Positions 1 through 37,811 of a stretch of 64,000 nucleotides of DNA are shown here, piece by piece. Position numbers and translations under genes: made by a program. Location: the IMG/VR virus record IMGVR_UViG_3300044568_004391, positions 1 to 64,000 of that record; one strand, written 5' to 3'. The DNA is from a virus. Under the pieces are notes generated by a model, which did no database searches, was not told the origin of the DNA, and saw only the letters and a list, made by a program, of their open reading frames with translations. Numbering within the stretch: position 1 is the first letter of the stretch; every line of letters begins with the position of its first letter.

Positions 1-9
1 CATTTTCGT

Positions 10-279
10 TTGAACGATATAAAGTGTTTTGTCCATAATAATGAAGATGATAATTTTTTAAAAATACTTTTTTATGGATTTGAAGAAATAAAAAACTTTA
101 ATCTAAAATATGAAGATAGTGTAAAAAACTTTTCTATTGATAATTGGAGTGAAATTATTATAGACCATAAAAATTTAAATAATATAAATATTGAATATAA
201 TGGTAAAAATTATAATCTATTGGAAGATTTGAATAAAGTCAAAAATTCTAAATACATAATTAAGAAAAAAAATGATTAA
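10..279 (+). CDS. hypothetical protein, probably the 3' end of a gene starting before the window
   Basis: Open frame from the window edge with a TTG pseudo-start; stop overlaps the next ATG. Confidence 0.5.
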   Translation: MNDIKCFVHNNEDDNFLKILFYGFEEIKNFNLKYEDSVKNFSIDNWSEIIIDHKNLNNINIEYNGKNYNLLEDLNKVKNSKYIIKKKND

Positions 280-1117
280 CATAGAAATTACAAAGACAGA
301 TGGAAATCTAAGTTTTAAAGTGGAACTTGATAAATTTACAACTTCAATAATAGGTGAGGATAAAAATTTAAAAGTAAGATTTTGTAAACTAGGATGTGAA
401 GATTATTGGGAACATAATATAGGTCCTGGTGTTTGGGTTACATTTAATACAGGATGGGTTACTGTTTATGATCTACAATTAATTTGTGATGATGAGGTTA
501 TTTACGAACATAAATTTGATTTCTTACTTTATGGTTCTGATTTAGAAAAGTTTTTTAATTTATATTGTAAAATAAACAAAAATACACGAGGTATTGTTGT
601 TGGATCCCATGATGGAACATTTGGTCATTGGGTTTTTTCAGTATTGAATCAAGAAACTTCGGCAATAATCATTGAGGGTTCTAATGAACAATATTTGAAA
701 CTTAAGAAAATGTATTCTGATAAACCAAAAAACATATTAATCAACGAAATTGTAACCAAGGACGGTGAAGATGTTGTTTGGTATAAAGGTGGTGAAGGAT
801 ATACTGATTCAATTATTTCGGAAGTACCAAACAAGTATATGAAGCCCGAACAAATTTCATCTGAGCTAAGAAAAACTAAAACTTTAAATGAAATTATTGA
901 AAAATATAATTATCAAGAATATGATTGGTTACATACTGACTTAGAAGGTTATGACGACAAATTAATAATGTCTTTGAAATATTTACCTAGGATAATTATA
1001 TTTGAAAGTAATCACATAAAAGAAAATGAAGATTATGGATTACTTTGTAATTTTTTGAGGGAAAAAGGATATATGATCAGAGATTTTGACGGTGATACTT
1101 TAGCAATTAGAAATTGA
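272..1117 (+). CDS. FkbM-family SAM-dependent methyltransferase-like protein
   Basis: VVGSHDG SAM-binding-like loop, IIIEG, WLHTDLEGYD (FkbM KIDxEG-like), IIFE, terminal F..L...GY. Confidence 0.65.
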   Translation: MINIEITKTDGNLSFKVELDKFTTSIIGEDKNLKVRFCKLGCEDYWEHNIGPGVWVTFNTGWVTVYDLQLICDDEVIYEHKFDFLLYGSDLEKFFNLYCKINKNTRGIVVGSHDGTFGHWVFSVLNQETSAIIIEGSNEQYLKLKKMYSDKPKNILINEIVTKDGEDVVWYKGGEGYTDSIISEVPNKYMKPEQISSELRKTKTLNEIIEKYNYQEYDWLHTDLEGYDDKLIMSLKYLPRIIIFESNHIKENEDYGLLCNFLREKGYMIRDFDGDTLAIRN

Positions 1118-2064
1118 AATTTGTCTCAGCCCAACCCGACGTTCCGTACTTTCATTGGCAATGTGAAATCTATGGATATAATTTTCAAAGATTAGGTATT
1201 GATCCGAATGATATTGTGATGTTGTTTGGACTGCAGGGTGATGAACCTTCTGATGGTTTAAAAAAACTCGCCGAAAAATACAACGTTCACTTTTACAAGG
1301 ACACAAGAAACAGGAAATATTATCCACCCTCTCTGAAACCCCATCTTATATGGAAATATCTGAAGGATAACCCAACGGATAAGTTTTTTCTTCATGACTC
1401 TGACATACTTTTTAGAAAACTTCCCGATTTTTCAAGATTCAATGATGATAAAATTTATTTGAGTGATACAAAAAGTTATATAGGATATCAATATCTTTTG
1501 GATTGTTGTCAGAGATATAAAGAAAAATTCCCTCAGACTCAAGACAGGGAATTGATCAGATGGATGATGGATGAGGTTGGAATTCCGATTGATTTGATTG
1601 AAAAAATGGACGAAAATGCGGGAGGTGCTCAATATACATTCTCAAATCAAGATTGGAGAGTATGGAAGAAAATCGAAAGGGACGCTCAATCGATTTATGA
1701 TAAGATGACGATGTACCAAAAGGTATATCCGTTGTCAAACAGTCCTGTTCAGTTTTGGACCGCTGAGATGTGGGCGGTCTTATGGAATTTGTGGTTCTTT
1801 GAATATGAAACCAAAATCACCAAAGAACTTGATTTTTCTTGGGCTTCAGATAATAGACAATTGTTGATGACCAAGAATATATTCCACTGTGCAGGTGTTA
1901 CCAAAGAGACCAAAGAGGGTAAATTTTATAAGGGTGATTTTATTGAAAAAAACCCAATCGATTTACTAAAGAACGATTCAACTTATTTTGACTATGTGTC
2001 AACAAATTCTGCAAGTTTTTTTTATATTCAAGAAATGAAAGATTTTGTTAGGAAAATGGAATAA
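1114..2064 (+). CDS. glycosyltransferase resembling plant peptidyl-serine galactosyltransferase SGT1 / Hyp-arabinosyltransferase HPAT
   Basis: Ordered motifs YFHWQ, YPPSLKP, HDSD (DxD), GYQYLLDC, AGG, WTAEMW match recalled SGT1 motifs YFDWQ, YPAINKP, LDAD, YGYLVGC, VGG, WISEMY; TTG start. Confidence 0.7.
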   Translation: MKFVSAQPDVPYFHWQCEIYGYNFQRLGIDPNDIVMLFGLQGDEPSDGLKKLAEKYNVHFYKDTRNRKYYPPSLKPHLIWKYLKDNPTDKFFLHDSDILFRKLPDFSRFNDDKIYLSDTKSYIGYQYLLDCCQRYKEKFPQTQDRELIRWMMDEVGIPIDLIEKMDENAGGAQYTFSNQDWRVWKKIERDAQSIYDKMTMYQKVYPLSNSPVQFWTAEMWAVLWNLWFFEYETKITKELDFSWASDNRQLLMTKNIFHCAGVTKETKEGKFYKGDFIEKNPIDLLKNDSTYFDYVSTNSASFFYIQEMKDFVRKME

Positions 2065-2097
2065 AAAAATACTTATTAAGAAAACAATTCAATCTGA

Positions 2098-4311
2098 ATG
2101 GCATTAGTCAATTGTTATAGGTGGGAAAAGTGTACAGACTCTTCGTCGTACATATGGGTTTCTACCGCTTATACAAGTCCTGATAATGTCGTTTATTACA
2201 GTGGTGAATGTTATGAAGTAAATTATTCAGTTACTGATTTTCAAGAACAGGTAATAATTTCAGCAAGTACATTTTATTCTGATTGTCCTACTTGTTTATC
2301 TTTGAATCCCTCGGCAACACCGACTCCAACACAGACTCAAACACCAACAATAACACCAACCTTAACGAGAACTACTACACCGACACCAACCATAACAAGG
2401 ACTCTTACCCCTACTAAAACATCAACACCAACAGTTACTCCCACTATAACCCCTACTGTTACGTCAGGTTTGGTTTCTGCAATTTTTAGTAATTGTTGCA
2501 CTGGTGATCTGATATATGCATTAACATATCCTTGGATCAATACTAGTTCTGAAATTGTTGTTGTTAGTGGTGGGACTTGTTTCAGGTTTGTTGAATATGA
2601 TGGTAATAACAACGGTGTTGACTACTTAGTTGACTTACAATATGTAAGTTGTTCGTTTTGTTTGGGTAATTATCCCTGTTTTCCAACACCTACCCCTACA
2701 GTTACTCCAACCATAACACCTAGTCCTTTACCTTGTAGTGATACTTCTTTTATATCTACACTCAGTGATTGTTATGAGGATTTTTGTATCTCGAATTTGG
2801 AAGGTCCATTATCTGTCTATAACGGAACATATAATCTTATAACGGGTACTGAATTATATAATTTACCTTACTACGAAAATACAGGAGGTACAGGTTACGT
2901 TTATTTCAAAGTAAATAAATGGTGTTTGTCTGATACACCAGGAGGATCGTGTATCATACAAGGTCAAAATAATCCATTGGATCCATGTCCTGCATTCCAC
3001 GAGAGTTTTTTCTATTCAGGTATTTGTATAACAACAACTACAACTACAGACCCGTGTAATGTTATTGATTTCAATGCGGTTTTCAATTGTGAAACCCCAA
3101 TAAATACCGCAACATTAACCCCAACACCTACCCCAACTCCAAGTCCTACCCCTTATGTTGATCGTTGTAGAGATGTTGGATTGACCGCAATTACTTATAC
3201 CACCACCACAACTACACTTCCTGTAACATCACCAACACCCACACCAAGCCCTCAACCACCGATCACAATTAGTGGAACTGTTGATTTTGAAATCTGTTGT
3301 TCTGATTTCATTTGTCCGGAAGTTTATAAGTTAAGAAATTGTACATCGGGTGAAATATTCTATGTTTCTCAAAGACTAATCGACTCGAGTGAAACGTATG
3401 TCCAAACAGGTCAAACATTTGATGCGATTGTTAATGGTAATAGAATTTGTTATGAATATTTGGGAAGAGAGTTGGGATCACCAAACATTTATTTGGATGA
3501 AATACTTTCAATTTACAACGAATGTGATCTTTGTCTCGTAACACCCACACCAACAGTTACACCAACATTAACTCAGACACCAACTGTCACACCGACTTTA
3601 ACACAGACACCTACGGTTTCGAGTTCATTTAGTACAGTAACACCAAGTATTACAACTACCCCGTCAAAAACACCAAAACCGACATCTACACCTACACCTA
3701 CCGTAACACCAACTCCACCTCATAAAATCTATGTGTATCAAGCATGTTCACCTGTCACCACTGCTTATGATTTAGTAATTCAGACAGTCGAGGTGACGGG
3801 TGTTACTTTAAATCAAACATTCAGAACAGGATACAATCAACCATGTTTCCAATATCTTGGAGAATATAATTTAGGTGAGTACTTTGTTAATCCTCAACTC
3901 AATGCTTTCGAATATACAGGAAATTACTTTGGTAATATAAATCCTTATTATGTTTTTGAAAGTTGTAACCAATGTCAGAATCCATTCCAATTCTCAATAA
4001 GAAGAGGAAATACAAACAATAATACAATATACTCATACCAGTTAAGACAGTCATATGACCAAGTAAACTATACCTCTGTGAATCTTGGATTTTTCTTCGA
4101 AGGTTCTATGTACATAAGAGTACAAAATCCCACTTCATCACAGGCGGGTCCACCTGCAAAATTCACAACATTAAGAATTTACGATGATGACACAAACGAA
4201 TTGTTGAATACATATAATTTAAATAATGTAACTTCTTATGAATTCCCTTATACTTTATTAAGGAATATCAGAATTGAAGTAACAATAAACCAACCAACGT
4301 CAGAAGGATAA
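2098..4311 (+). CDS. Thr/Pro-repeat, Cys-module putative virion protein
   Basis: 737 aa; several TPTPT tracts separating ~60-aa modules that end in CxxC. Confidence 0.7.
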   Translation: MALVNCYRWEKCTDSSSYIWVSTAYTSPDNVVYYSGECYEVNYSVTDFQEQVIISASTFYSDCPTCLSLNPSATPTPTQTQTPTITPTLTRTTTPTPTITRTLTPTKTSTPTVTPTITPTVTSGLVSAIFSNCCTGDLIYALTYPWINTSSEIVVVSGGTCFRFVEYDGNNNGVDYLVDLQYVSCSFCLGNYPCFPTPTPTVTPTITPSPLPCSDTSFISTLSDCYEDFCISNLEGPLSVYNGTYNLITGTELYNLPYYENTGGTGYVYFKVNKWCLSDTPGGSCIIQGQNNPLDPCPAFHESFFYSGICITTTTTTDPCNVIDFNAVFNCETPINTATLTPTPTPTPSPTPYVDRCRDVGLTAITYTTTTTTLPVTSPTPTPSPQPPITISGTVDFEICCSDFICPEVYKLRNCTSGEIFYVSQRLIDSSETYVQTGQTFDAIVNGNRICYEYLGRELGSPNIYLDEILSIYNECDLCLVTPTPTVTPTLTQTPTVTPTLTQTPTVSSSFSTVTPSITTTPSKTPKPTSTPTPTVTPTPPHKIYVYQACSPVTTAYDLVIQTVEVTGVTLNQTFRTGYNQPCFQYLGEYNLGEYFVNPQLNAFEYTGNYFGNINPYYVFESCNQCQNPFQFSIRRGNTNNNTIYSYQLRQSYDQVNYTSVNLGFFFEGSMYIRVQNPTSSQAGPPAKFTTLRIYDDDTNELLNTYNLNNVTSYEFPYTLLRNIRIEVTINQPTSEG

Positions 4312-6312
4312 ATGCCGTATTTTCTAAATATATCACAAATATTAGGTACACCTCCTTTCAACGTTTATGTTTGTGACGAATTTGGTTCGAATTGTGAATT
4401 TATTGAGACAATAAATGAATCTGATTTACCATTTTCTTTCCAATTACCGTCGGCTTTTACAGAATCATCTTATTGTGTGTCAATTATTGATGATCTTGGT
4501 TGTGATATAAATAACTGTATTGCTGTAACACCAACTAATACACCGACCAATACTATTACACCCTCTATCACACCAACAATCACGGTGACTCCAAGTCAGA
4601 CAAGACCAATCGTTTATTATGCAGGTGTTGAGTGTTGTGATGGAACAATTATTCAATTATATGATATAAATGGAGATGATATAGTAAATGATGGTGAGTT
4701 TTTCTATTTATCAGGTTTTTCAGTTTCAGATCCAAGTCAGATTATAACAGGATGTTATGAAATAAGAACAACGTTGTCTGGTGGAACAATTTATGAGGTA
4801 GAAATTTACGGAGATGGATCTGCTTCACCATATACTGGTTGTTCGGCGTGTTTAACCGACAGAGTTTTGGCGTGTTCATTAACACCAACCCCAACAAACA
4901 CTGAAACACCAACTCCTACTCCAGGTTTGTCACCAACTCCGACACCTACGAATACTCAAACACCAACTGAGACTCCAACCGAGACACCCACAAATACACC
5001 TACAGTCACTCAAACACCGACCAATACACCTACAGTCACTGAAACACCGACTAACACACCTACGACAACTATAACACCAACAAATACAATCACGCCAACA
5101 ATCACAAAAACACCGACACAAACCCCGACAAATACGGTGACTCCAACAATTACTCCAACTCAAACAAGTACACCTGCAAATACTGTAACTCCTACTATTT
5201 CAGAAACACCTACAAATACCCCCACAAATACGGTTACTCCGACCCTGACACAAACGCCTACAAATACCCCCACAAATACGGTCACTCCAACCCTGACACA
5301 AACACCTACAAATACTCCAACGAATACTGTTACACAAACGGTTACTGAGACACCTACCAATACTCCAACTAATACTATTACACCTACTAATACTCAAACA
5401 CCGACTATTACACCTAGTATTACTGCAACAGTAACGTCAACAGTAACTCCAACAGTAACTCCAACTCCGACAAAGACAGTGACGCCAACAACAACTGTCA
5501 CACCCACAAGAACTGTAACACCAACTAATACTCCTCCACTCAACACCTACACTTTCCAATCTTGTGCAACAAAACTGAGACCTGACCTCATAGATGTTGT
5601 GTACAATTATTCGGCTTTTAATTTTACAACTAGTACAGTCTATTCAACAGGGAGTACAGTAGAGGTTTCTATACTCATCAGTGCAGGATGTCCGCTTTGT
5701 AAGTTTTCAGTAGATGAATGTTATTCTGTGATCACATATGACGCATCCAAACCAACCAAGCCTGCGAATTATACAGTAGGAACGACGGCAACATGTGGGG
5801 CTGGTAAGTGTGATTTAACATATATTGGATTACAAGAATGTGGGACTACTGATAAATTTTTGAGTTCGGCTAATATACCAAACTTAACTGCAAATACATG
5901 GACTGTGGGTAGTACCGCAAGAATACCAACAATACTACCGATTGCCCCAACATATCTATCAGGTCATGAATTCTCAGGAGTTTGTTTTCAGATAATAGCA
6001 CCTCAATCATCATTAAATCTATCACAGACTGGAATATTCGGAGATGAATGGGCACAGAATGAAAGTGGTTTCTTAAAAACTTCAAGTTGTGTGAGTACGA
6101 ACTGTGATTCATGTAGAGAAGATGTTATATTAGTCAATACTGATGATTCACCTCAGACGGTTAATTATACTTTATGTGATGGAGTTGCAACATCTTCGAC
6201 TATACCAGCAGGGAATCAAATTACACAAACATCTTGTATTAGTGTAGTTTCGTTTATGAATAATGCACCTGCTACAGGACAGGTATTCTTCTCTGGTGGT
6301 ACGGCATGTTAA
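4312..6312 (+). CDS. Thr/Pro-repeat, Cys-module putative virion protein
   Basis: 666 aa; ~220-aa TPT tract; N-terminus ([11 protein letters not shown]) paralogous to 6328..7272. Confidence 0.7.
5209..5320 (+). repeat. ~48-bp near-exact tandem repeat encoding [16 protein letters not shown]
   Basis: cctacaaatacccccacaaatacggt(t/c)actcc(g/a)accctgacacaaac repeated about 2.3 times. Confidence 0.75.
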
Positions 6313-6327
6313 TACTATTTATGTAAA

Positions 6328-7272
6328 ATGCAAGTAGAAATAACTAACATATCAGGACAGGAACCATACGACATTTTTGTGTGTGATATAGACGCATTGA
6401 ATTGTATTTGGATTGATAATATTTCTGATAGTCAATTACCATTTTATTTCGATATTCCAAGTATATTTCAAACTTATGGAAATAATTTTGTCGTGAAAAT
6501 GGTAGACTCCAATTTATGTCAGTTCACAACTACCTCTACCATGGCGTCACCTACTCCGACACCAACAAATACACAAACACCAACAATTACACCAACAAAT
6601 ACAGCGACACCTACCCTTACACCAACAAATACAGCGACACCTACCCTTACACCTACTAATACAGCGACACCTACCGTTACACCTACCTTTACGAGTACAT
6701 CTACACAAACACCTACACCTACCAAAACATCAACACCTACTACAACACAAACACCTACAGTAACTCCCACAATTACACCAACAATCACAACAACCCCAAC
6801 CAATACGATTACACCATCAGAAACGGCGACATCAACACCAACGCCAACTCTAACACCTACAACTACAGAAACACCCACAAATACTCCAACAAATACAGAG
6901 ACACCTACAAATACACCAACAAACACAGAGACACCTACAAACACTCCAACAATAACGCCTACCACATCAATTACACCAAGTATAACACCTACCATTTCTT
7001 TAACACCGAGTATAACACCTTCTCCGAGATGTGATTGTTATTCGGGAGTTACAATTACATTCGAATGTACTACTGGAATCTGTCCAGGAAGTGCTAATTT
7101 TGGTTTCTATGGTTGTGACCAAGAAACCTATGATGAAGTAACTGTGGATGTAAATGATTCATTACAAGTGAATAGGTGTATGTATTTACCTTCCTTGGAC
7201 GTAGTGTCATATATACCACCTCAATCTTCTTGGTCTTATAGTCTGAGTGGAGCAACAACATGTTGTGAATAA
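6328..7272 (+). CDS. Thr/Pro-repeat putative virion protein
   Basis: N-terminal [11 protein letters not shown] domain, ~160-aa TP tract, Cys-rich C-terminus. Confidence 0.7.
6591..6680 (+). repeat. 30-bp tandem repeat x3 ([10 protein letters not shown])
   Basis: accaacaaatacagcgacacctacccttac twice exactly plus one variant copy. Confidence 0.85.
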
Positions 7273-7284
7273 TGAATAAAGAAA

Positions 7285-8979
7285 ATGAGTATATTCAATA
7301 ACATAAACGACTGTTCACCAATAACGATTTTTCCTTTGGGTGTTGAATGTGTATCAACGAATACATCAACACCAATATCTACGGACGGATCTTTGAGTTT
7401 GAATATAACAGGAGGAACACCGCCTTATGATATTACTTGGAGTAATGGTGAATCTTCACCAACCATCTTGAATTTAGCCGCCGGATCATATTCTGCAACG
7501 ATTATTGATTACTATGGTGATTATACAGCATCAACTACTTGTGTTGTTGGATCCGAAACTTTTGATTTATACAAATTCACATCTTGTCCTGATAGTGCAA
7601 CAACAATCTATCTCAGTGCGACAACAACTAATTTGACCGTAGGTAAGATATATCAATTATCTAATTTTATTTCGGGGAGTTGTACAAATATAGTTTTAGA
7701 ATATACAGACTTCATACCCGTTGGATCGCCCGCACAACTTTCTTCACCTTTATATTTGGGGATGAAAAATTTTAGTAATGGAATCACAATTGAATATTAC
7801 TACTCTAATGGAAACATATATGAATACTCATATCCTTCTGTTACTTATTTGGGATCTTATATAAGTATTTTTAATGCTCCTTTACAATTACCGAGTAAAC
7901 AAGATTTAATCTGTAATGGTGTCACCTACGATTCATTTGATTCGACTTGGTTCGCTTATCCAAACATATCTTATTTGGGTAAAACATATACTTTATGGGT
8001 TTTAGCAACGGCAGGTGAATTGGCTAATTCTGAAGGAATTCAAACGGTAGTTTTCTGTTGTGATGACTCTTTGACTCCAAATTGTTGGACTTATTTGGGT
8101 CAGGAATATTATACGGGTCAAACTATATCAAATAACTCGAGCTATTTCTATGATTTTGATTCTTGTGTAGAATGTAATCCATCACTATCCGATGTTCCTG
8201 ACACTATTTGTTTGAATAAGGGAATTCAGACATCACCAACACCCACACCAACGATCACACCAACTCCAACCGTAACTCCAACTTTAACTGCTACACCCAC
8301 TGTCACACCGTCTATCACGCCAAGTACAAGTGCTAATAATCTTGTTTCCTTCTATTCATGTTGTGGATATCAATATTTCAACGTGAATACAACCGAAACG
8401 GTATTCCCAATCGTTCCTAATGTCGGTGACACTCAGATTGTTGTATTTACAAATGAATCATCTGCAAATCCATTCTTAAACAATAAGTGTTTCACAAGGG
8501 TTGCGTTCAATTCTTCATATACTCTGAAGAGTTTAAGTTCGGCAGGAGCGGTTGTCTTTGATAATACAATCTATGGATCTTGTGAAATTTGTGACGGGGT
8601 TTCTCCTTGTATTCCTCCATCACAATCCCAAACGCCTACGGTGACACCAACTCCTACGGTCACACCATCAATAACAGTTACATCCACTCCAACTCTTACT
8701 CCTTTCTTTACACCATCTAATACACCAACAAATACACCAACTCCAAGCTTAACCCCTACAATTTCATTAACACCTTCAATAACCCCTACCAATACTGGAA
8801 CCCCAACACAAACACCTTCTATAACACCAAGTTCTTCGGTTACACCAACTATAAGTCCAAGTCCGACAATAACTCCATCTATAACTCCAACAATTACTCC
8901 ATCCCCTCTCTTCTATTTACAACAGGAAAATGAATTCTATATCCTTCAAGAGGATGGAAGTAAAATAATTATCACCTAA
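7285..8979 (+). CDS. Thr/Pro-repeat virion protein with SprB-like repeat and C-terminal LQEDG motif
   Basis: DGSLSLNITGGTPPYDITWSNG (SprB-like), Cys modules, TP tracts, ends YILQEDGSKIIIT. Confidence 0.7.
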   Translation: MSIFNNINDCSPITIFPLGVECVSTNTSTPISTDGSLSLNITGGTPPYDITWSNGESSPTILNLAAGSYSATIIDYYGDYTASTTCVVGSETFDLYKFTSCPDSATTIYLSATTTNLTVGKIYQLSNFISGSCTNIVLEYTDFIPVGSPAQLSSPLYLGMKNFSNGITIEYYYSNGNIYEYSYPSVTYLGSYISIFNAPLQLPSKQDLICNGVTYDSFDSTWFAYPNISYLGKTYTLWVLATAGELANSEGIQTVVFCCDDSLTPNCWTYLGQEYYTGQTISNNSSYFYDFDSCVECNPSLSDVPDTICLNKGIQTSPTPTPTITPTPTVTPTLTATPTVTPSITPSTSANNLVSFYSCCGYQYFNVNTTETVFPIVPNVGDTQIVVFTNESSANPFLNNKCFTRVAFNSSYTLKSLSSAGAVVFDNTIYGSCEICDGVSPCIPPSQSQTPTVTPTPTVTPSITVTSTPTLTPFFTPSNTPTNTPTPSLTPTISLTPSITPTNTGTPTQTPSITPSSSVTPTISPSPTITPSITPTITPSPLFYLQQENEFYILQEDGSKIIIT

Positions 8980-8993
8980 AAATATTTATAATT

Positions 8994-9563
8994 ATGCCAG
9001 ATTTACCAATATCATCCTTACCTGAATTAACAGCATTGACGAACAATACAGAATTTGCTGTCGCTTCAAATGGGGTGACTTATAAAGTAAAATCCGTAAA
9101 TTTATCTTCAGGTAATTTGGTTGGGTCTTTTATTTCACTTTCATCTCAAACAGCATCTTCAACTACCGTTGCGTATTCAATGAGTGCTAACACAACAACC
9201 CTTTCAAGTGGAGTTACTGTGGTTGATGGGTCTAAATTTACGGTGGCTTCAGCAGGAACTTTTAATATTCAGTTTTCAGCACAAGTCGAATCTTCAGGTG
9301 GTGGTAATGCTCAGACTGTGGATATTTGGCTTTCCAAAAACGGATCAAATGTTGATTATACAAATACTCAAATTGTAGGTAACTCAAACAACGGTCGTAG
9401 TGTTGCTGCTTGGAACTTCGTTGAAACAAATACATCTGGTGGATTTTTCGAAATAAAATGGAGAGTGGATGATGTTAGATTAGGATTTGTTTATCAAGGA
9501 CCCAACACAAATCCTACAAGACCCGCAATTCCCTCTGTAATCGTAACCGTAACTCAAGTATAA
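8994..9563 (+). CDS. putative tail-fibre tip protein (C1q/BclA-like beta-sandwich)
   Basis: N-terminal ISSLP motif; FTVASAGTFNIQFSAQ...AAWNF...PSVIVTVTQV. Confidence 0.5.
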   Translation: MPDLPISSLPELTALTNNTEFAVASNGVTYKVKSVNLSSGNLVGSFISLSSQTASSTTVAYSMSANTTTLSSGVTVVDGSKFTVASAGTFNIQFSAQVESSGGGNAQTVDIWLSKNGSNVDYTNTQIVGNSNNGRSVAAWNFVETNTSGGFFEIKWRVDDVRLGFVYQGPNTNPTRPAIPSVIVTVTQV

Positions 9564-9986
9564 ATGTCAGATTTAACAATATCCCAACTCACGAGTGTTG
9601 GATCATTATCCAACCAAGCGTTCTTTCCATTGTCACAAGATGGATCCACATATAAAGTTGCTTTTAGTGCTTTGACCGATTCGATTTCGGGAACGAGTTC
9701 CAATAATTATGTAACAACTGGAATCACCACAAGTCAAACTTTGAGTTGGGACAAACAATATTGGGGAATTTCGGGTACTACAAATGTTGATGTTACTTTA
9801 CCTTCTTTGGCGGGTAAAAACGGATATTTTTTAATCGTAAAGGATGAGGCAGGAATTTGCGGAACATATAGAATTAGGATTACTCCAACAGATGGATTAA
9901 TTGATGGGAGTTCTTATGTTGATATGAACATAAACAATATGTCATTAACTATAATGACAAGAAATAATAATTGGTATATAATATGA
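9564..9986 (+). CDS. putative tail-fibre protein
   Basis: N-terminal ISQL motif; VTLP...IVKDEAG...IDG fibre-type repeat. Confidence 0.5.
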   Translation: MSDLTISQLTSVGSLSNQAFFPLSQDGSTYKVAFSALTDSISGTSSNNYVTTGITTSQTLSWDKQYWGISGTTNVDVTLPSLAGKNGYFLIVKDEAGICGTYRIRITPTDGLIDGSSYVDMNINNMSLTIMTRNNNWYII

Positions 9987-11194
9987 GCTACATTTTTAAC
10001 GATCAAATATCATATTCAGATTCAGTCAATTTGGATGCTTTTGGAAGACTTAGAGTCTCTGAATTGACAAGTTTAATTGAGATAAAATATGAACAGGATA
10101 AACTACCAAATCAAGTTGATGAGGTTGTTAATGGAAGTGCGACTTCTACCCTTGAAGCGGTAAACGCATGTGTAATAATGACTGTATCAACAACAGGCGA
10201 TTATGTCATTAGACAATCAAAAGAAAGAGGAATTTATCAACCTGGAAAAAGTCAGTTGTGTGAATTCAGTTTCTCGGATTTTGAATTGGATACCAATGTA
10301 ATTAAACGAGTTGGGTATTTTTCATCTTCAACTGCGGCAACATACGACTCACAATTTGATGGGTTTTTTCTTGAAAGTAATGGTATTAATAATGAAGTAT
10401 CATTTCAAATATGGAAGACAGGAACATTGATTTTGAGTGCGGCGACTGATACTTGGGATTCAAGTCAAGTAGATCCATCAACCATTGATTGGTCAAAAAC
10501 AAATTTGATGGTAGTAGATTTTCAGTGGTTGGGAGTAGGAAGAGTTAGATTTGGATTAAATTTGAGTGGAAATACTTATATCTTCAAAACAAACTCAGGA
10601 ACAAATAACCTTTCTGATGTTTATATGACATCACCTGATCAACCTATAAGATATGAAATTAGATCCTCTGGAGGAACTGGATCATTCCATCAAATATGTT
10701 CTACTATTAGTGATGAAGGAACAAGAAATACAATCAAAAGGACGGGATCATTATCTCAAATAAACACGGTCACCCTATCATCTTCGGGTACTAAATATCC
10801 TTTCATTGGGTTGAGAGCGTCTCCTATTTATGATCAAGTTACAATTCAGTTAACTAACTGCCAAGTACTCAACACATCAAATGATAACTTCTTAGTTACA
10901 GTTGAGATAAATCCAACCATTTCATCAGGTATGACATATTCAAGTGGAAATACTGCTGAATGGCAATACTCTTTAGGTAATGGTGCTCAGACTGTAACAT
11001 CGGATGGTGTGATTATTGCAGGATTCATCGGTGAAGCTGGAACTTCAGCAATAACTAATATAGAGTTAAATGAAAGTGAAATTAAACCTGGAAGAAAAAT
11101 TGATGGTACAGTAGACCAACTTTGGGTATGCATAACACCACTCGGGGCTGCCGCTACATTTATAGGTAGTACCAACTTTACATACGAAAAATAA
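9983..11194 (+). CDS. putative virion structural protein (DAFGRLRVS family)
   Basis: DAFGRLRVS and QWLGVGRVRFG motifs recalled from phage structural proteins; ATG at 9983 preferred. Confidence 0.55.
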   Translation: MSYIFNDQISYSDSVNLDAFGRLRVSELTSLIEIKYEQDKLPNQVDEVVNGSATSTLEAVNACVIMTVSTTGDYVIRQSKERGIYQPGKSQLCEFSFSDFELDTNVIKRVGYFSSSTAATYDSQFDGFFLESNGINNEVSFQIWKTGTLILSAATDTWDSSQVDPSTIDWSKTNLMVVDFQWLGVGRVRFGLNLSGNTYIFKTNSGTNNLSDVYMTSPDQPIRYEIRSSGGTGSFHQICSTISDEGTRNTIKRTGSLSQINTVTLSSSGTKYPFIGLRASPIYDQVTIQLTNCQVLNTSNDNFLVTVEINPTISSGMTYSSGNTAEWQYSLGNGAQTVTSDGVIIAGFIGEAGTSAITNIELNESEIKPGRKIDGTVDQLWVCITPLGAAATFIGSTNFTYEK

Positions 11195-12759
11195 TGGCAA
11201 CAAGTAGTTTATCCATATGTAATATTCAATTTGAAAAGTCATCCACGACTTTTAATGGGAAACCTACGTGGGTAAATACTGGTCAAAATTTAACAATAAA
11301 ATGGGATACTACCAATGATTGGTGGTATATAGAGGGTTGGTCTCCAGGTGAACAAATCTTGACAGGAAATACAATCGCACCTATTGGAGAGTGGATTCCT
11401 GTTGGACCGGCAGATTATTTTTATAGTTCTACGGGTGAAGCTTGTGCAGAATGTATTAGTTCATTTATTTGTTTGAGTGATGGAACCACACAATATGAAT
11501 TTGAGGTGACATCAGATATTGTCAATGGAAGAAACACTTGGACTTCAGGAAGTTATACCATACAATGGGATTCGATCAACGCATATTGGTTTGTTAATGG
11601 TTGGGATCAGGAGGGTCAGATAATAAATACAGTAAATATCGACAATCCATTGGGTGCATGGACACAAGTTGGATTGTCTGTACCCCAATCTTGGCTCGCA
11701 ACAAATGAGGCATGTCCTGAAGTTTCTTTTATATCTACAGTTAGTGTTAATAATGTGAGTTGTCAAGGATTCTGTAATGGTAATATTACGATTATACCTG
11801 AGGGAGGACAAAGTCCTTATTTATATTCAATAGACAACGGTATAACATTCCAAAATTCAAATATTTTTAATGGATTATGTGAAGGGACAGGTGAAATAAT
11901 TGTTAGGGATTCTAACGGAGTGGAAATTACTGTACCTTTTGTTTTATTGTACGATTCGGAGGTTTCAAGTTACACACTCAATTTAGTTGAATTTTCAATT
12001 TTATTGATTAATCAAAATAATTATAAGAAAAAACAATACAATTATAATATTGTTGTATCACCTTCTTTACCTTTTGGATCTTCCTTAACATTCAATATCA
12101 AGGGAAAGAATGTAGATACACTCAAAGAACCGGGATCTGCAAATTTCCAACATACATGGACAAAAATAGTGAATGGTGTAACTTCTGTAATACCTGAAAC
12201 AAGTTCACAATCCACATCAAAAACGAGAACTTGTGCTTCTGGACTTCAGAACGAAACAACTACAACTTACAATTATTCACAAAATTTATTAAGTTTAAAT
12301 TCTACAACACCATTTATTCAAGTAATTTGTGTTACAGATATTCAAATAGTGACCAATTCTTCAGATTCTTCTTGTCCAACTTATGCTGAAACAAAAACAA
12401 GTTTACAAGTTTCGAATGTAAAATTAAATAATGTACCTTGTTCAACAATCGTTGTACCACTTACTACGACTAACGAAGATATAATTTATTTACAAGGTAG
12501 TACTTTGTTGACCAATACTGCATTTTCAGTAATGTATTTAAACACACCCGAAGTTGACGGATATTGTGGTGATGCGTATCCTTCATATTCAAACATTATA
12601 TATACAGAACCAAATGTAACAACCTTGAATTCAGGAGTCGTTGTGTATAGTGATTCATCACTTAATAATTACGTACCTTTTGGAACTTACTTCCAACTAA
12701 ATGGTATAGTATATCAAGTTTTTCAAAATGGTTTCCTAACTGTTTATTGTAGTCAATAA
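11194..12759 (+). CDS. putative virion protein with duplicated Trp-rich module and SprB-like repeat
   Basis: Two NG..TW...TI.WD...W...GW...P.G.W modules; VSCQGFCNGNITI..EGGQSPYLYSIDNG. Confidence 0.55.
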   Translation: MATSSLSICNIQFEKSSTTFNGKPTWVNTGQNLTIKWDTTNDWWYIEGWSPGEQILTGNTIAPIGEWIPVGPADYFYSSTGEACAECISSFICLSDGTTQYEFEVTSDIVNGRNTWTSGSYTIQWDSINAYWFVNGWDQEGQIINTVNIDNPLGAWTQVGLSVPQSWLATNEACPEVSFISTVSVNNVSCQGFCNGNITIIPEGGQSPYLYSIDNGITFQNSNIFNGLCEGTGEIIVRDSNGVEITVPFVLLYDSEVSSYTLNLVEFSILLINQNNYKKKQYNYNIVVSPSLPFGSSLTFNIKGKNVDTLKEPGSANFQHTWTKIVNGVTSVIPETSSQSTSKTRTCASGLQNETTTTYNYSQNLLSLNSTTPFIQVICVTDIQIVTNSSDSSCPTYAETKTSLQVSNVKLNNVPCSTIVVPLTTTNEDIIYLQGSTLLTNTAFSVMYLNTPEVDGYCGDAYPSYSNIIYTEPNVTTLNSGVVVYSDSSLNNYVPFGTYFQLNGIVYQVFQNGFLTVYCSQ

Positions 12760-14972: not shown

Positions 14973-15572
14973 ATGTCAAATCAATTAAAAAACAGCCCAA
15001 AGGTGCTTGGCCTTGATATATCAACGAAAACTATTGGATGGGCTCTCTTTGATATTCAACAGAAAAATTTATTGGAGTTAACTCATTTTACACCCCTCCT
15101 TAAACCAGAACCTGAAAATAAAATTGAAGCTCTTATTCATAAGACCCTTCTTTTTGAACAAAAGTTGGTCGGGTATAAGAATTTGGGTATTACCAAAGTG
15201 GTAATTGAAGAACCTCTTCTCAACTCCAACAACACTTATACTGTAGGAACTTTGTTGAGATATAATTCTATGATCACCAAATCTATATTTGATATTTTGG
15301 GATTGGTTCCTGAATATATCTCTACGTATGATTCAAGAAAATTTGCTTTTCCTGAATTGGTTAGAGAAAACGACAAAGGTAAAAAAGTATTGTTTGGAGG
15401 TTACCCAAAAGATATTGACAAGAAGATGTTAATTTGGGAACACGTTGCAAAACAAGAACCTCAAATCAAGTGGTTGTATACAAAAAACAACACTCTTAAG
15501 AAAGAAAACTTTGACCAAGCCGATGCGTATACTTGTGCTCTTGGTTATATGAGAAAAGAAAATATCTGGTAA
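14973..15572 (+). CDS. RuvC-like Holliday junction resolvase
   Basis: VLGLDIS, VVIEE and DQADA acidic catalytic motifs. Confidence 0.75.
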   Translation: MSNQLKNSPKVLGLDISTKTIGWALFDIQQKNLLELTHFTPLLKPEPENKIEALIHKTLLFEQKLVGYKNLGITKVVIEEPLLNSNNTYTVGTLLRYNSMITKSIFDILGLVPEYISTYDSRKFAFPELVRENDKGKKVLFGGYPKDIDKKMLIWEHVAKQEPQIKWLYTKNNTLKKENFDQADAYTCALGYMRKENIW

Positions 15573-15612
15573 ATTTTGATTTATTGAGTTTGGTTGATTA
15601 TATTTTTGTGTG

Positions 15613-16545
15613 ATGAACCCAGAATATGATTACCTTATCGATCTCCTAAATGGTATGTTGGGAAAGTCCCGTAAACACAACGAGGGTACGGGTCAGATTT
15701 CTTATGACTGTCCTGTGTGCTCGTATGACATCAAAGGACTTGAGCGTGGGGATGGGAAGGGAAACTTGGAGGTAAACTATTATAGAAATCTGTATCACTG
15801 CTGGTCTTGTGGGGAAACCAATGACACTCACGGTCACTTGGAACAACTTATAAAGACCTACGGGACCAAAGAAGATCTCAGGACTTATAACCTTTTAAGA
15901 TCAGACAAGAAAGAGATTGTTCAAAAAACCTACAGAAAACCGAAGTTACCCAAAGAGTTCGTTAAGTTCTCCGATCTTCACGACAGGCTCCCTATCAAAC
16001 GGCAATCCTTGAAATATCTGAAAGAGAGGGGTGTTACAGACCAAATGATCAAAGAGTTTAATCTTGGGGTGGCAACAGGTGGATCTTATGTTAATAGGAT
16101 TATAATCCCCTCCTATGACGAAAACAAGGAACTCAATTACTTTGTTGCAAGATCTTTTGTGGGTGATAAACTAAAATACAAAAACCCAACCTATCCAAAG
16201 GAAGAGATTATCTTCAATGAATCCAAAATCAATTGGTTCAATCCGATTTGGATTGTGGAAGGTCCGTTTGATTCTTTGTTTATTCCAAACTCCATTCCTA
16301 TTCTTGGAAAGGTGTTATCGGATAAACTATGGAATCTTTTATATAACAAAGCCACCAGTGTTGTCATCTGTTTGGATGAGGATGCGTGGGAGAATTCCAA
16401 AATGATGTATAATGTGTTAAATGGTGGAAAGCTTGAAGGGAAGGTAAGAATTGTTCACCTTCCAAAGAACAAAGATCTGGCTGATATTCGGGGACAAGTT
16501 CCTGAAGAATGTTGGGTGGATCCTGATAAATTATGGAAAAATTAA
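15613..16545 (+). CDS. DNA primase (Zn finger + TOPRIM)
   Basis: CPVC...HCWSC, YL.ERG, RIIIP, IVEGPFD, LDED. Confidence 0.85.
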   Translation: MNPEYDYLIDLLNGMLGKSRKHNEGTGQISYDCPVCSYDIKGLERGDGKGNLEVNYYRNLYHCWSCGETNDTHGHLEQLIKTYGTKEDLRTYNLLRSDKKEIVQKTYRKPKLPKEFVKFSDLHDRLPIKRQSLKYLKERGVTDQMIKEFNLGVATGGSYVNRIIIPSYDENKELNYFVARSFVGDKLKYKNPTYPKEEIIFNESKINWFNPIWIVEGPFDSLFIPNSIPILGKVLSDKLWNLLYNKATSVVICLDEDAWENSKMMYNVLNGGKLEGKVRIVHLPKNKDLADIRGQVPEECWVDPDKLWKN

Positions 16546-16548
16546 ATT

Positions 16549-17316
16549 ATGGATACAATATTAGAATTATCAAAGTTTAACTATATAAAATATTATGATG
16601 AACCTCACGAATATTTTATTGATGGAGTAAAACAAATTTCGGCGACACAATTTCTTGGTAAGTTCAAACCGAAGTTTGAAACCAATCAGATGGCCGAAGG
16701 GTATGCTAGACGGAGGGGGTTGGATAAAGAAAGTGTGATACGGGATTGGGATTTCAAACGAGAATTTTCAACGGTAAAGGGATCCGCATTTCACGAATAT
16801 GTTGAAAATTGGTATGGAAATAAGGTATTCCCTTATAACCAACGGATTGCCGAACAAAAGTTTGGGATTGATGTTGTCAGGGAAGCGTATGATAAATTGA
16901 TTGAGTTGTTTGAAAAATTCTATGAAGATTCCAAAGACAACTTAATTCCGGTAAAGTCCGAACTTGTGGTGGGAGATAGGGAATATGGAATTTGTGGTAT
17001 GGTTGACCAGTTGTTTTATAACAAAAAATATAACGAACTTCAGATTTGGGACTGGAAGACAAACAAGAAGATTGGAACCAAGAATGATTATGGTGAAAAG
17101 TTTTTGGAACCTTTAAACAATATGGATGTTTGTGAATTGAATACCTATAGCCTTCAATTAAATTTATATAAACATATTATTGAAAAGAACACAAACCTTA
17201 AGATTGGAAAACTTTATATCTGTTGGTTCCACGAAACAAACAAAAAGTATGAAGTAATTGAATGTAAGGATTTTTCAGAGGAAATAAACCAACTTGTAAA
17301 GTTAAACAAAATATGA
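16549..17316 (+). CDS. PD-(D/E)XK exonuclease (RecB/Cas4-like)
   Basis: GSAFH, SELVV, GMVDQL, IWDWKT, YSLQLNLY. Confidence 0.8.
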   Translation: MDTILELSKFNYIKYYDEPHEYFIDGVKQISATQFLGKFKPKFETNQMAEGYARRRGLDKESVIRDWDFKREFSTVKGSAFHEYVENWYGNKVFPYNQRIAEQKFGIDVVREAYDKLIELFEKFYEDSKDNLIPVKSELVVGDREYGICGMVDQLFYNKKYNELQIWDWKTNKKIGTKNDYGEKFLEPLNNMDVCELNTYSLQLNLYKHIIEKNTNLKIGKLYICWFHETNKKYEVIECKDFSEEINQLVKLNKI

Positions 17317-18218: not shown

Positions 18219-18229
18219 TATAATTGGAT

Positions 18230-19012
18230 ATGATTAATAAAATTATACATTTCTCGGATTTACATATCCGTCTATATAGGGATCACGATCTTTACCGGTC
18301 CATATTGGAAAGGAGTTTGGAGGAATGGAAAGAACATAAACCCGATCGTATTGTGTTCACAGGAGATTTGGTTCATTCCAAAAATCAGATGACACCCGAA
18401 CTGGTAAGTTTTGTTAGTTGGTTTTTGACAGAATGCTCAAAGATCACCAAGACAATTCTTCTAATCGGAAACCACGACTTCTTGGAAAACAACACTGACC
18501 GTATGGACGCTCTTTCACCGATCATTCAAAACCTACAGAATGACAATATTGTATATTACACTGAGAGGGGGGTTTATAACGATGAAAACATAAATTGGTG
18601 TGTTTATTCTTTGAAAGAACATAACCTTCCACCGATTATTGAACGAGAAAAAAACAAAGTTAATATCGGTCTATTTCATGGACCGATTCAAGGTCTGACC
18701 ACAGATCTTGGACATAAATTTGATGAGGGATTTGAACCTTCGAAGTTTGGTGGGTGTGACTTGGTGATGTGTGGTGATATTCATAAGAGACAGGTTTTTG
18801 ATATTCCAAACGGGAAGAAAGCATATATGGTGGGATCAACCATACAACAGAACTTTGGGGAAAATATCAACAATCACGGATATGGAGTATATGATGTTAA
18901 CGAAGATAAATACGAATTTTTTGAAGTTGAAAATCCAAGATTGTATTTGAACTTCAAAATCACATCAATCGAAGATATTGAACATGGGAGAGAAGAACTT
19001 GTTAACTGTTAA
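18230..19012 (+). CDS. sbcD: SbcD/Mre11-like metallophosphoesterase nuclease subunit
   Basis: SDLH, GDLVH, GNHD, GDIHKRQ. Confidence 0.85.
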   Translation: MINKIIHFSDLHIRLYRDHDLYRSILERSLEEWKEHKPDRIVFTGDLVHSKNQMTPELVSFVSWFLTECSKITKTILLIGNHDFLENNTDRMDALSPIIQNLQNDNIVYYTERGVYNDENINWCVYSLKEHNLPPIIEREKNKVNIGLFHGPIQGLTTDLGHKFDEGFEPSKFGGCDLVMCGDIHKRQVFDIPNGKKAYMVGSTIQQNFGENINNHGYGVYDVNEDKYEFFEVENPRLYLNFKITSIEDIEHGREELVNC

Positions 19013-19891: not shown

Positions 19892-19911
19892 AACTTTTTA
19901 AATTAAAAAAA

Positions 19912-20130: not shown

Positions 20131-20142
20131 AAAATAAATTGA

Positions 20143-31084: not shown

Positions 31085-32890
31085 ATGCCAACGGCTAGAC
31101 CATTTGCATATAACACAGGGTCACCTATACCCGGTACATTACAAATTGGTGATTTAGCAATTGGTGTTGACCCATTAGATTATTCAACAAACCCTGGTGG
31201 TGTTCAATGGTGGAATGGACCAGATGAAGACCTTGGATATGTAATTGCTCATCCGACGCCGGCAGGGAATCAACCAAACCCTCTTGGAATTCCAGCCTAC
31301 TTGGGATTTTGGAGATCTGAGTTTTTAACTGAAGCATCTTTTATTGGACTTGCTGAATATGTTTCCAACCAACACGGAGATCCACAAACATTTTTAACAG
31401 GATCAAGTGCTAAAACTTGGTTAAACAATAATGGTTATTGGACTTCATATGACGAGATTCAACCAATTGTTTATTTGGATTCGGGTAATAACTTATCATA
31501 TTCAGGATCTGGTAGTATATGGTACGATTTGGAGGGTGTTAGTAATAACGCAACATTAATAAATACACCAACATATTCATCAAGTTATCAAGGAATTTTA
31601 AGTTTTGATGATACATCATCTGAGTATGCAACAATACCTGACATTGGAGATTTAAATCAATGGACTGTTGAAGTTTGGTTTAGGATTTCTAAATCTTTGA
31701 CGGGTAAAGTATCCTCACTTGTCACCAATCAGTATAATTTATCAACTAAACTAAATTTCAGTGTTGGTACAAACAACGCACCAAGTAGTTATAATCTCGT
31801 TGTTGGTTTTTTTGATGGAGCATGGAGAAACACAACAGGGTTTGTTCCGAGTTTGAATACTTGGTATCAGGTTGTTGGAACTTATGATGGATCGGTATTA
31901 AGACAATATGTAAATGGAACTGCCTCGGGAGGTACATTAAACTACGCCGGAACACCACAGAGTGGTGGAGAGGTAAGATTGATGAGGAGGTGGGACTCAA
32001 CGGTTTCTTCGGGTAACTTAATTGCTGGTGATTTAGCGATTGTAAAAATTTATGATCAAGCTCTTAGTGACTCAGATATATTAGACAGTTATAATAGCAC
32101 ATACACAAGATTTGTAGATCTAACACCTACTCCTACTCCTACTGTAACACCTACTATAACACCGACCATAACTCCAACCCCAACACCTTCACCTTCACCT
32201 GCTGGAGGTATTGTAACAAGTAACTTATTTATGAAGTTAGATGCTACTAACTATACAAGTGGAACGTGGAATGATGAGACAGCCAACGGAAATAACGCAA
32301 CAATTAATGGTGCGACTTGGTTATCAGATGATGGTGGTATATTTGATTTGGATGGTCTAAATGATAACATAAGTATTCCACACAACTCATCCCTGTCACT
32401 ATCCACAACACAACAGAGGACAATTCAGGTGTGGGTCAAATTTGATACATTACCTGCACTTAACACACAAGGACAACCTGTTTTTGGTAAATTATCAAGT
32501 TCATTTGGTTTTGATGGGTATTGGGGTGGATTATTTTCTAACACAGGAACAATTAGAGTTGTGACTAATGGTACTGCGATTCAGAGAGTTACAACATCAA
32601 CCCTTACAATTACAACAGGAACTTGGTATCTTTATACTTTTATATCTCAGATAACTTCAACTTCAAATACAACTAAAGTATATATCAATACTACAGAATA
32701 TGGATCTACGGCACATGGATCAGATACATATACAGAAACAAACCCCTTATATCTTGGATATATAGGTGATGGTGTTTCATCACCATATTTAAATGGTAAA
32801 ATCGGGGCTTGTTATTTTTATACTTCAGGATTATCTTTATCTGATATTACAACAAATTATAACGCAACTAAATCAAAGTATGGTTTATAA
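31085..32890 (+). CDS. virion protein with two LamG-like domains joined by a TP linker
   Basis: LDSGNNLSYSGSG..W.DL, WYQVVGTYDG, central TPTPTPT linker, second LamG domain. Confidence 0.75.
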   Translation: MPTARPFAYNTGSPIPGTLQIGDLAIGVDPLDYSTNPGGVQWWNGPDEDLGYVIAHPTPAGNQPNPLGIPAYLGFWRSEFLTEASFIGLAEYVSNQHGDPQTFLTGSSAKTWLNNNGYWTSYDEIQPIVYLDSGNNLSYSGSGSIWYDLEGVSNNATLINTPTYSSSYQGILSFDDTSSEYATIPDIGDLNQWTVEVWFRISKSLTGKVSSLVTNQYNLSTKLNFSVGTNNAPSSYNLVVGFFDGAWRNTTGFVPSLNTWYQVVGTYDGSVLRQYVNGTASGGTLNYAGTPQSGGEVRLMRRWDSTVSSGNLIAGDLAIVKIYDQALSDSDILDSYNSTYTRFVDLTPTPTPTVTPTITPTITPTPTPSPSPAGGIVTSNLFMKLDATNYTSGTWNDETANGNNATINGATWLSDDGGIFDLDGLNDNISIPHNSSLSLSTTQQRTIQVWVKFDTLPALNTQGQPVFGKLSSSFGFDGYWGGLFSNTGTIRVVTNGTAIQRVTTSTLTITTGTWYLYTFISQITSTSNTTKVYINTTEYGSTAHGSDTYTETNPLYLGYIGDGVSSPYLNGKIGACYFYTSGLSLSDITTNYNATKSKYGL

Positions 32891-37361: not shown

Positions 37362-37811
37362 TTGCCAGGATTTATAGGTCAAATCAACATTGAGGGAGGA
37401 ACCATTACAGGTTCGAGTTACACATACGACGTAATTGTAAAATCCTGCTCTGAAACTGTATGGGTTCAAATTGGTAATTCTGTTCCCTATTCTTCTTTTC
37501 CCGTTTTTTTTGATGTATTTCAAACGTTGGGTGAGACTTATTGTTATGACTATAATGTAATTGAAGAGAATTTTTTAGCTCAATGTGAGGGAACGGTGAA
37601 TTTCCCAACGCCAACACCAACAATAACCCCAACTATTACCCCTACGGTTTCAGTAACTCCGACAATAACACCTACACATACTAAAACTCCAACAAAAACA
37701 CCCACAGTTACACCAACGAGAACTCAAAATTACGATTGTAATGTTCTTGGAACTGAAAACATGGACAACTTATCGGCGGAAAATGGAGATGAATTATGTA
37801 CGCTTCCATGA
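37362..37811 (+). CDS. small Thr/Pro-repeat virion protein with C-terminal ENG motif
   Basis: TTG start after TATTTAT; TP tract; ends LGTENMDNLSAENGDELC. Confidence 0.6.
   Translation: MPGFIGQINIEGGTITGSSYTYDVIVKSCSETVWVQIGNSVPYSSFPVFFDVFQTLGETYCYDYNVIEENFLAQCEGTVNFPTPTPTITPTITPTVSVTPTITPTHTKTPTKTPTVTPTRTQNYDCNVLGTENMDNLSAENGDELCTLP

Follow-up and report, generated by a model that had tools for sequence, protein, structure and literature searches.

A phage glycosyltransferase family associated with threonine-rich tracts of structural proteins: a candidate system for virion O-glycosylation

The DNA analysed here, called the window in the following, is a 64,000-nucleotide stretch that forms the first 64 kb of one 151,984-bp virus record (IMG/VR record IMGVR_UViG_3300044568_004391). 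Close to its 5′ end lies a gene for a glycosyltransferase (GT) of the family phrog_4417. This GT is probably a soluble GT-A enzyme of the retaining type, which attaches O-linked sugars to Thr-rich tracts in the structural proteins of phages. In many unrelated phages the gene is found together with such tracts, and the two are gained and lost together. The window itself encodes proteins with long Thr-rich linkers, and the chances that these linkers are substrates of the GT appear roughly even. The record has a mean G+C content of ~35% and a completeness of ~52% as estimated by CheckV; at this length and completeness it is therefore probably part of a jumbo phage genome. The gene in question is the following.

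1114..2064, plus strand: candidate peptidyl-Thr O-glycosyltransferase of the family phrog_4417, TTG start, 316 amino acids (aa), DxD motif D95/D97

The original prediction had described this open reading frame (ORF) as carrying six motifs in a fixed order, and both the ORF and all of the motifs are present. These are YFHWQ (residues 12-16), YPPSLKP (70-76), HDSD (94-97), GYQYLLDC (124-131), AGG (169-171) and WTAEMW (215-220). Conservation was assessed in two alignments, one of 32 relatives with 48-90% identity and one of 65 diverse representatives with a mean column identity of 28%. The motifs coincide with the invariant or near-invariant columns W15, Q16, Y70, D95, D97, Y122, Y127, G171, Q213, W215, M219 and W220 and are thus not chance strings. 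Further columns of this kind are H258, G261 and K273. Among the 65 diverse members D97 is invariant and D95 is conserved in at least 90%.

The protein matches phrog_4417, a family of unknown function, with an E value of 4e-67. Relatives number 1174 in a 90%-clustered protein set, with 799 representatives at 50% identity. The phage collection contains 77 records of the family, all labelled hypothetical, and their hosts are Lactobacillus, Enterococcus, Staphylococcus, Lactococcus, Clostridium, Chryseobacterium and Arcanobacterium.

The suggestion that the enzyme and Thr-rich proteins go together across phage genomes is strongly borne out when the enzyme is taken as the starting point. In the clade of the window phage (IMG/VR loci whose GT is 44-51% identical), ORFs rich in Thr/Pro or poly-Thr lie within 10 kb of the GT gene in 76 of 80 syntenic loci, mostly directly downstream of it, and the remaining four loci end on that side. 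In many of these relatives the first gene after the GT encodes true poly-Thr. Poly-Thr/Ser tracts were also found on capsid, tail or GT-adjacent proteins in all ten characterized GT-carrying lineages that were checked. The tracts are placed as follows.

phiFL1A (Enterococcus): C-termini of the major capsid (MCP) and major tail (MTP) proteins
4995_1 (Enterococcus): capsid C-terminus; the gene that follows is the GT
SA2 (Staphylococcus) and TPWB06 (Arcanobacterium): tail-protein C-terminus and an overlapping poly-Thr extension ORF just upstream of the GT
R3.3 and PLE3 (Lacticaseibacillus): capsid and tail proteins; in PLE3 also a 125-aa poly-Thr protein adjoining the GT
P1046 (Lactococcus): capsid protein and the gene immediately upstream of the GT
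phiCTP1 (Clostridium): two head-module proteins
Semele (Lb. plantarum myovirus): a 120-aa ORF immediately upstream of the GT
MA9V-3 (Chryseobacterium): two upstream ORFs

In the siphoviruses the GT gene stands directly after the MCP gene or between the genes for the MTP and the tail chaperones. In SA2 (L083:19117-19930) and TPWB06 (L402:9164-9926) the MTP ends in poly-Thr, and a short overlapping ORF in another frame encodes almost nothing but poly-Thr. This overlap, directly upstream of the GT, looks like a frameshift-extended variant of the tail-tube protein with a much longer tag. The poly-Thr tags close with short codas that differ between lineages: TQA, TQG or TQR in the Enterococcus phages, SHA in the Lacticaseibacillus phages, HHD in P1046 and TSK in PLE3. 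The codas were seen at the C-termini of the tagged proteins in the loci L002, L084, L401, L403, L404 and L087-L151.

Related phages with and without the enzyme were then compared. The MTP of phiFL1A, without its tail, was used as a query, and 27 related IMG/VR loci were compared. All 12 GT-positive loci encode an MTP with a poly-Thr tail, and 11 of them carry a tract on the MCP as well, whereas none of the 15 GT-negative loci has a tract of any kind. On the MTP tree, calculated with the tail removed, the GT and the poly-Thr tail share their four points of change, and no fewer than three of these fall on supported branches. Three GT-negative records are 90-100% complete and contain no GT anywhere in the genome. 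In GT-negative relatives, the counterparts of the tagged proteins end right after the conserved core ...GETTGDY... Relatives of the R3.3-type capsid protein were also inspected, and a Thr tract is present on it in 37 of 37 GT-positive loci.

In the window, the Thr-rich proteins begin immediately downstream of the GT. The four genes that follow it were said in the original prediction to contain long Thr/Pro tracts, as were two more at 31085 and 37362, and all six were located. A scan of the whole 151,984-bp record returned exactly these six Thr/Pro-rich ORFs. The first four are co-directional with the GT and separated by gaps of 0-33 nt. They are listed here together with a virion structural gene that marks the context.

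2098..4311, plus strand: candidate substrate of 737 aa with five Cys-rich globular modules; matches phrog_15511 (E 9e-23)
4312..6312, plus strand: candidate substrate of 666 aa with a conserved N-terminal module of ~72 aa and 238 residues of (Thr-Xaa)n
6328..7272, plus strand: candidate substrate of 314 aa with the N-terminal module, a 159-residue (Thr/Ser-Xaa)n tract (aa 74-232) and an 82-aa Cys-rich C-terminal module
7285..8979, plus strand: candidate substrate of 564 aa with an Ig-like N-terminal module at aa ~15-90 (GGTPPY..W)
9971..11194, plus strand: virion structural protein, phrog_1645 (E 8e-48), given for context
31085..32890, plus strand: protein of 601 aa with a 25-residue (Thr-Xaa)n linker (aa 347-371); its C-terminal part matches phrog_8510, a virion structural protein family (E 5e-27)
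37362..37811, plus strand: protein of 149 aa with a 39-residue (Thr-Xaa)n tract (aa 83-121); matches phrog_15511 (E 5e-6) through the tract only

The tracts had been taken for TP repeats. They are indeed rich in Thr and Pro, but they are better described as strictly periodic (Thr/Ser-Xaa)n, in which ~45% of the Xaa are Pro and the remainder are N, V, I, L, Q and others. They total 720 residues, and the longest uninterrupted run is that of ORF 6328. The in-phase positions hold 326 Thr and 42 Ser, and every one of them is Thr or Ser. All four Thr codons occur in the tracts. As judged from the sequence, the conserved feature is the hydroxyl residue and not the TP dipeptide. In ORF 2098 the linkers lie at aa 72-122, 197-209, 337-351 and 482-539, and T6 runs are found at aa 312 and 368. 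The longest run of ORF 4312 has 117 residues (aa 291-407), and the linkers of ORF 7285 lie at aa 317-349, 446-472 and 476-540. Neither a signal peptide nor a transmembrane segment was found in any of the six proteins.

The modules between the linkers are partly conserved among the related loci. The N-terminal module of ORF 4312 is 35% identical to that of ORF 6328, and this module recurs in 52-60 loci (60 for that of ORF 4312). Domain 3 of ORF 2098 has homologs in 56 loci. The Ig-like module of ORF 7285 recurs in 77 loci, where it is usually encoded by the first gene behind the GT; in the fold prediction for aa 1-316 of this protein, only aa ~15-90 are confident and the rest has a pLDDT below 50. 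The N-terminal modules are conserved, and most of the distal Cys-rich modules are variable and have no homolog in the related loci. For proteins made in the cytoplasm, the globular modules are unusually rich in Cys, with 32, 25, 11 and 18 Cys residues in the four ORFs of 2098-8979, 32 being the count for ORF 2098. Many of them show a recurring C...C-x-x-C ending ahead of each linker. The modular layout suits fibre-like or decoration proteins. A place in the virion is suggested by the context, namely phrog_1645 at 9971-11194, phrog_8510 in ORF 31085 and the Ig-like module in ORF 7285. GT-negative kin of the window phage were sought through the protein encoded at 9971-11194, and no close relatives were found; there is thus no negative control from within the clade.

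Several observations weigh against the view that the GT glycosylates Thr-rich tracts, and in particular those of the window. The 80 loci of the clade are related and syntenic, so that together they amount to roughly a single observation. The comparison of gain and loss yields three independent pairs, which are all concordant and too few for a sign test (p = 0.25). When the tracts are taken as the starting point, 32 phage records (contigs of 30 kb or more) contain (TP)n repeats in frame, and only 2 of them encode the GT; both records belong to kin of the window phage, and the count among near-complete records is 0 of 5. Similarly, runs of at least nine Thr occur in 18 records, of which only 2 encode the GT. 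One R3.3-type genome, L114 (IMG/VR 3300044857_000298, 100% complete), has no GT, yet it has kept the poly-Thr tail of the MTP. The co-variation was seen for tracts of the poly-Thr type, and those of the window are of the (Thr-Xaa)n type; the virion location of the latter proteins is read from gene context only. The support is comparative throughout, and a glycan on these proteins is deduced rather than observed. Thr tracts often occur without the GT and may be plain linkers. Such an asymmetry, with the GT nearly always accompanied by tracts and tracts often found without the GT, would be expected if the GT required the tracts as substrates, while the tracts could also function as plain linkers or be acted on by other enzymes. 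Since (TP)n and poly-Thr tracts are common without the GT, the (Thr-Xaa)n linkers of the window are not proven targets. The pairing of the enzyme with TP linkers, as first proposed, is therefore to be modified: (TP)n is common without the GT, and the tight partner of the enzyme elsewhere is poly-Thr.

At the L114 locus (L114:9995-11116) the Thr tail of the capsid protein and the adjacent GT are both missing. The capsid protein has instead a C-terminal extension that is longer by ~70 aa and appears Ig-like when judged by eye.

These data allow for a second explanation, in which the GT is a protein O-glycosyltransferase and the (Thr-Xaa)n stretches of the window are unmodified flexible linkers. 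The targets would then be short poly-Thr, such as the T6 runs of ORF 2098, or another protein. The wide occurrence of (TP)n in phages without the GT speaks for this explanation, as do the demonstration of co-variation for poly-Thr tails and not for TP linkers, and the true poly-Thr in the gene just downstream of the GT in many clade relatives. Against it, the six (Thr-Xaa)n ORFs that the 152-kb genome contains are all located in the window, four of them directly after the GT, and Thr or Ser is kept at every in-phase position of runs of up to 159 residues while Xaa is free. The fixation of Thr/Ser with a varying Xaa suggests that selection acts on the hydroxyl residue and not on a stiffness conferred by Pro. 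We consider this explanation rather unlikely.

The AlphaFold2 model of the GT (pLDDT 92.4, pTM 0.90) has a GT-A fold with a single Rossmann-like alpha/beta/alpha domain. The DxD motif (H94-D95-S96-D97) comes after the beta-strand E90-93, in keeping with the metal-binding motif that GT-A enzymes carry behind the fourth strand. The nearest solved structures are those of glycogenin (score 14.8), AgtA (14.2), LgtC (13.6), GlyE (13.2), LARGE1 (13.1) and UGGT (13.1), and chains of the inverting GT2 and GT31 types score lower, at 9-10.7 or less. In terms of the model, the enzyme is nearest to the retaining enzymes of the GT8, GT24 and GT77 families, which points to retaining chemistry. The sequence identity to the GT8-type neighbours is 6-12%. 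No match to Pfam PF01501 (Glyco_transf_8) was obtained for the window GT at E ≤ 0.1 or for the 65 relatives at E ≤ 1. The window GT has no match to any Pfam family at E ≤ 0.1 and none in NCBIfam. Sequence searches against solved structures, with a single profile and with a diverse profile, gave chance-level matches only, and BFVD returned only uncharacterised family members such as Orf49 of Lactobacillus phage LP65. In GT8-type enzymes a C-terminal His, within an HxxGxxKPW-type motif, completes the metal site. The invariant H258, G261 and K273 of the phage family stand at a comparable position and may correspond to this motif. The GT contains no hydrophobic segment (maximum Kyte-Doolittle mean over 19 residues, 0.71) and is thus predicted to be soluble and cytoplasmic.

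The structural neighbours include enzymes such as LgtC (lipooligosaccharide), WbbM (O-antigen) and LARGE1, and this raises the question of a non-protein acceptor. The GT could act on an envelope polysaccharide, a teichoic acid or a lipid-linked glycan, perhaps together with a glycan-biosynthesis cluster at 107-119 kb of the same genome, and its link to Thr would then be indirect. The genome does encode GT2, GT10-like and GT11 enzymes and nucleotide-sugar tailoring enzymes, and the GT domain is often fused to GT2 or GT4 domains of the polysaccharide type. Against this, the GT has no membrane segment, and in siphoviruses of 36-40 kb it sits within the head and tail morphogenesis modules, adjoining the tagged protein. 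It is also gained and lost together with the poly-Thr tag on the neighbouring structural protein, and an indirect link leaves the loss of the tag in the absence of the GT unexplained. We therefore hold a non-protein acceptor to be improbable. Phage glycosyltransferases that act on DNA are well known, and a DNA methyltransferase is encoded in the window at 40820-41662; hypermodification of the phage DNA against restriction was thus considered as well. DNA glucosyltransferases are, however, absent among the structural neighbours, the GT gene belongs to late structural operons and varies together with protein tags, and the small temperate phages of Firmicutes that carry it show no hydroxymethyl-pyrimidine pathway in the regions inspected. 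Such a role is very improbable.

The enzyme had been described as SGT1/HPAT-like, by analogy with plant enzymes. This description is only partly upheld. The window GT did not match the Pfam family HPAT (PF23452) in a library scan or in a genome search at E ≤ 10, but no other Pfam family recurs within the 65 relatives, of which 3 match HPAT at E ≤ 1. The best of these, P0238, reaches 21.9 bits (E 1.3e-4), which is under the cut-off of 23.9 bits. P0238 is collinear with positions 9-230 of the 307 positions of the HPAT profile and is related to the window GT at E 2.5e-37. In feature-based look-ups, PF23452 is present on 10% of the members of a related Atlas cluster. For plant SGT1, the original prediction gave the motifs YFDWQ, YPAINKP, LDAD, VGG and WISEMY in the same order as those of the window GT. 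Plant SGT1 was not retrieved by a profile search of proteins of 707-2015 aa, which returned only phage and bacterial fusions; this is a weak test that depends on shared words. On these sequence comparisons, the relation between the GT and HPAT is a distant one at the superfamily level, below threshold, and does not amount to membership.

Elsewhere the GT domain is fused to PF11397 (the Skp1-type hydroxyproline N-acetylglucosaminyltransferase family) and to protein O-fucosyltransferase, GT2, GT6, GT32-like and methyltransferase domains. Fusion proteins from metagenomes are P0155, P0148, P0159, P0270, P0276, P0292, P0283 and P0287, and their partners include protein O-fucosyltransferase with F5/8-type-C, GT4, GT32-like PF04488, and FkbM or Methyltransf_24 domains. 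In one case the partner is a radical-SAM/SPASM domain. According to its NCBI label, P0155 originates from a metagenome-assembled genome of Bacteroidota, and P0270, a long relative, combines FkbM and GT domains in a single protein. The repeated fusions to glycosyltransferase and methyltransferase domains fit a multi-step assembly of a glycan.

In the window an FkbM-type gene also lies immediately upstream of the GT.

272..1117, plus strand: FkbM-family methyltransferase, 281 aa, Pfam PF05050 (27.0 bits against a cut-off of 22.7 bits)

Its stop overlaps the GT start by 4 nt. We ruled out that this methyltransferase accompanies the GT as a conserved partner, as homologs are present in 0 of ~150 related loci. 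A megablast search of the first 12 kb of the window against the phage collection gave no match. Scans of positions 1-12000 for promoters and terminators returned counts equal to the shuffled expectation, so that no operon boundaries can be claimed in this region. Further downstream, at 14973-23841 and 40820-41662, genes for a RuvC-like resolvase, a primase, an exonuclease, an SbcC-like nuclease and the DNA methyltransferase are mixed with genes of virion structural families in a mosaic arrangement.

The glycan-biosynthesis cluster mentioned above lies outside the window, at 107051-118659 (L399). It contains three GT2 domains in two genes (a 463-aa double GT2 and a 244-aa GT2), GT10-like and GT11 fucosyltransferase-like genes and a weakly FUT8-like ORF. 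Two DegT/EryC1 aminotransferases, a hexapeptide acetyltransferase, a split TPP E1/transketolase-like pair and three NAD epimerase/dehydratases are also encoded there. A fourth epimerase/dehydratase is found at 75517-76449 (L400), and M43 metallopeptidases at 74098-75501 and 119616-121724. Nothing ties this cluster to the GT at 1114.

We propose that the GT, as a soluble, cytoplasmic, metal-dependent and retaining GT8-like enzyme, would take a sugar from a nucleotide-sugar donor and transfer it, ahead of assembly or while it proceeds, onto Thr (and Ser) hydroxyls; the residues would lie in low-complexity, Thr-rich tracts of structural proteins that the phage itself encodes. Among the small phages of Firmicutes, these tracts would be the short poly-Thr tags at the C-termini of the MCP and MTP. 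In the window phage and its clade they would be the long (Thr-Xaa)n or poly-Thr linkers in multi-domain, Ig-like, Cys-rich, fibre-like proteins encoded beside the GT, and the products would probably be displayed on the virion surface. A more far-reaching version of this proposal can be put forward only tentatively. In it, phrog_4417 would be the initiating enzyme of a widespread self-glycosylation system of phages, and a portable pair of enzyme and glyco-tag, either poly-Thr or (Thr-Xaa)n, would let phages of Bacillota, Bacteroidota and Actinomycetota O-glycosylate capsids, tails and fibres. The nucleotide-sugar and multi-GT cluster of the jumbo phage would extend the glycan to a host-independent, mucin-like coat, and the family would represent a viral branch of the lineage from which the extensin glycosyltransferases of plants (GT95/GT96) arose.

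If the proposed activity is confirmed, phages with self-glycosylated particles would be recognisable by one unannotated gene family, which has at least 77 sequenced carriers and ~800 clusters at 50% identity. Among the carriers are well-studied phages of Enterococcus faecalis, Staphylococcus, Lactococcus and Lacticaseibacillus, and the question is directly testable in culturable phages. Glycans on the virions of mycobacteriophages affect antibody recognition, as cited in PMC12363180. Virion glycans could also influence stability, adherence to mucus and adsorption, which is relevant to phage therapy and dairy fermentation. The GT together with a short poly-Thr tag would then constitute a compact, transferable tool for site-directed O-glycosylation in bacteria.

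Of the known systems, the plant and algal enzymes HPAT (CAZy GT95) and SGT1 (peptidyl-serine alpha-galactosyltransferase, GT96) glycosylate extensins. Both are O-glycosyltransferases of proteins, with low-complexity tracts rich in Pro and in hydroxyl groups as their targets, as is proposed for the phage GT. Their acceptors are hydroxyproline (Hyp), or Ser in Ser-Hyp4 motifs, whereas the acceptor of the phage enzyme would be Thr. HPAT is a Golgi enzyme with a type II membrane anchor; the phage GT has no such anchor. Among the nearest in fold are protein-acting enzymes of the GT8 type, namely glycogenin, GlyE, which acts on the pneumococcal serine-rich-repeat protein PsrP, AgtA, which acts on the Skp1 glycan, and UGGT (GT24). 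The phage GT differs from them in its low sequence identity and in the lack of a Pfam GT8 match. GlyE, moreover, extends an existing N-acetylglucosamine and does not initiate on the peptide. Autonomous glycosylation is also known from giant viruses, for example from PBCV-1, whose A064R protein consists of two GT domains and a methyltransferase, and from the fibril glycans of mimivirus, but these are viruses of eukaryotes. The glycans of PBCV-1 are N-linked at atypical sites.

The closest parallel is found in the mycobacteriophages. According to two articles, the phages Che8, Corndog and Myrna modify capsid and tail-tube proteins with glycosyltransferases of their own (Freeman et al. 2023, Cell Host Microbe, via PMC12363180 and PMC11256854). 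The original claim that a pairing of this kind was undescribed in phages is narrowed by these reports: glycosylation of the phage capsid and tail is already known, but in the literature that we searched, neither this GT family nor its partnership with poly-Thr tags is described, and no HPAT-like enzyme is reported from phages. As in the mycobacteriophage-type system, a phage-encoded GT occurs here together with tagged capsid or tail proteins, the GT adjoining MCP or MTP genes whose products bear poly-Thr at the C-terminus, and in the Firmicutes carriers, as in the mycobacteriophages, the tagged proteins are the MCP and the MTP. The two systems differ in their hosts, which are Bacillota and Bacteroidota for the carriers and Actinomycetota for the mycobacteriophages, and in that glycosylation was demonstrated in the latter and is deduced from the genes in the former. 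The window phage departs further from the mycobacteriophage pattern, as its candidate substrates are long linkers in fibre-like proteins and not tags on the capsid and tail.

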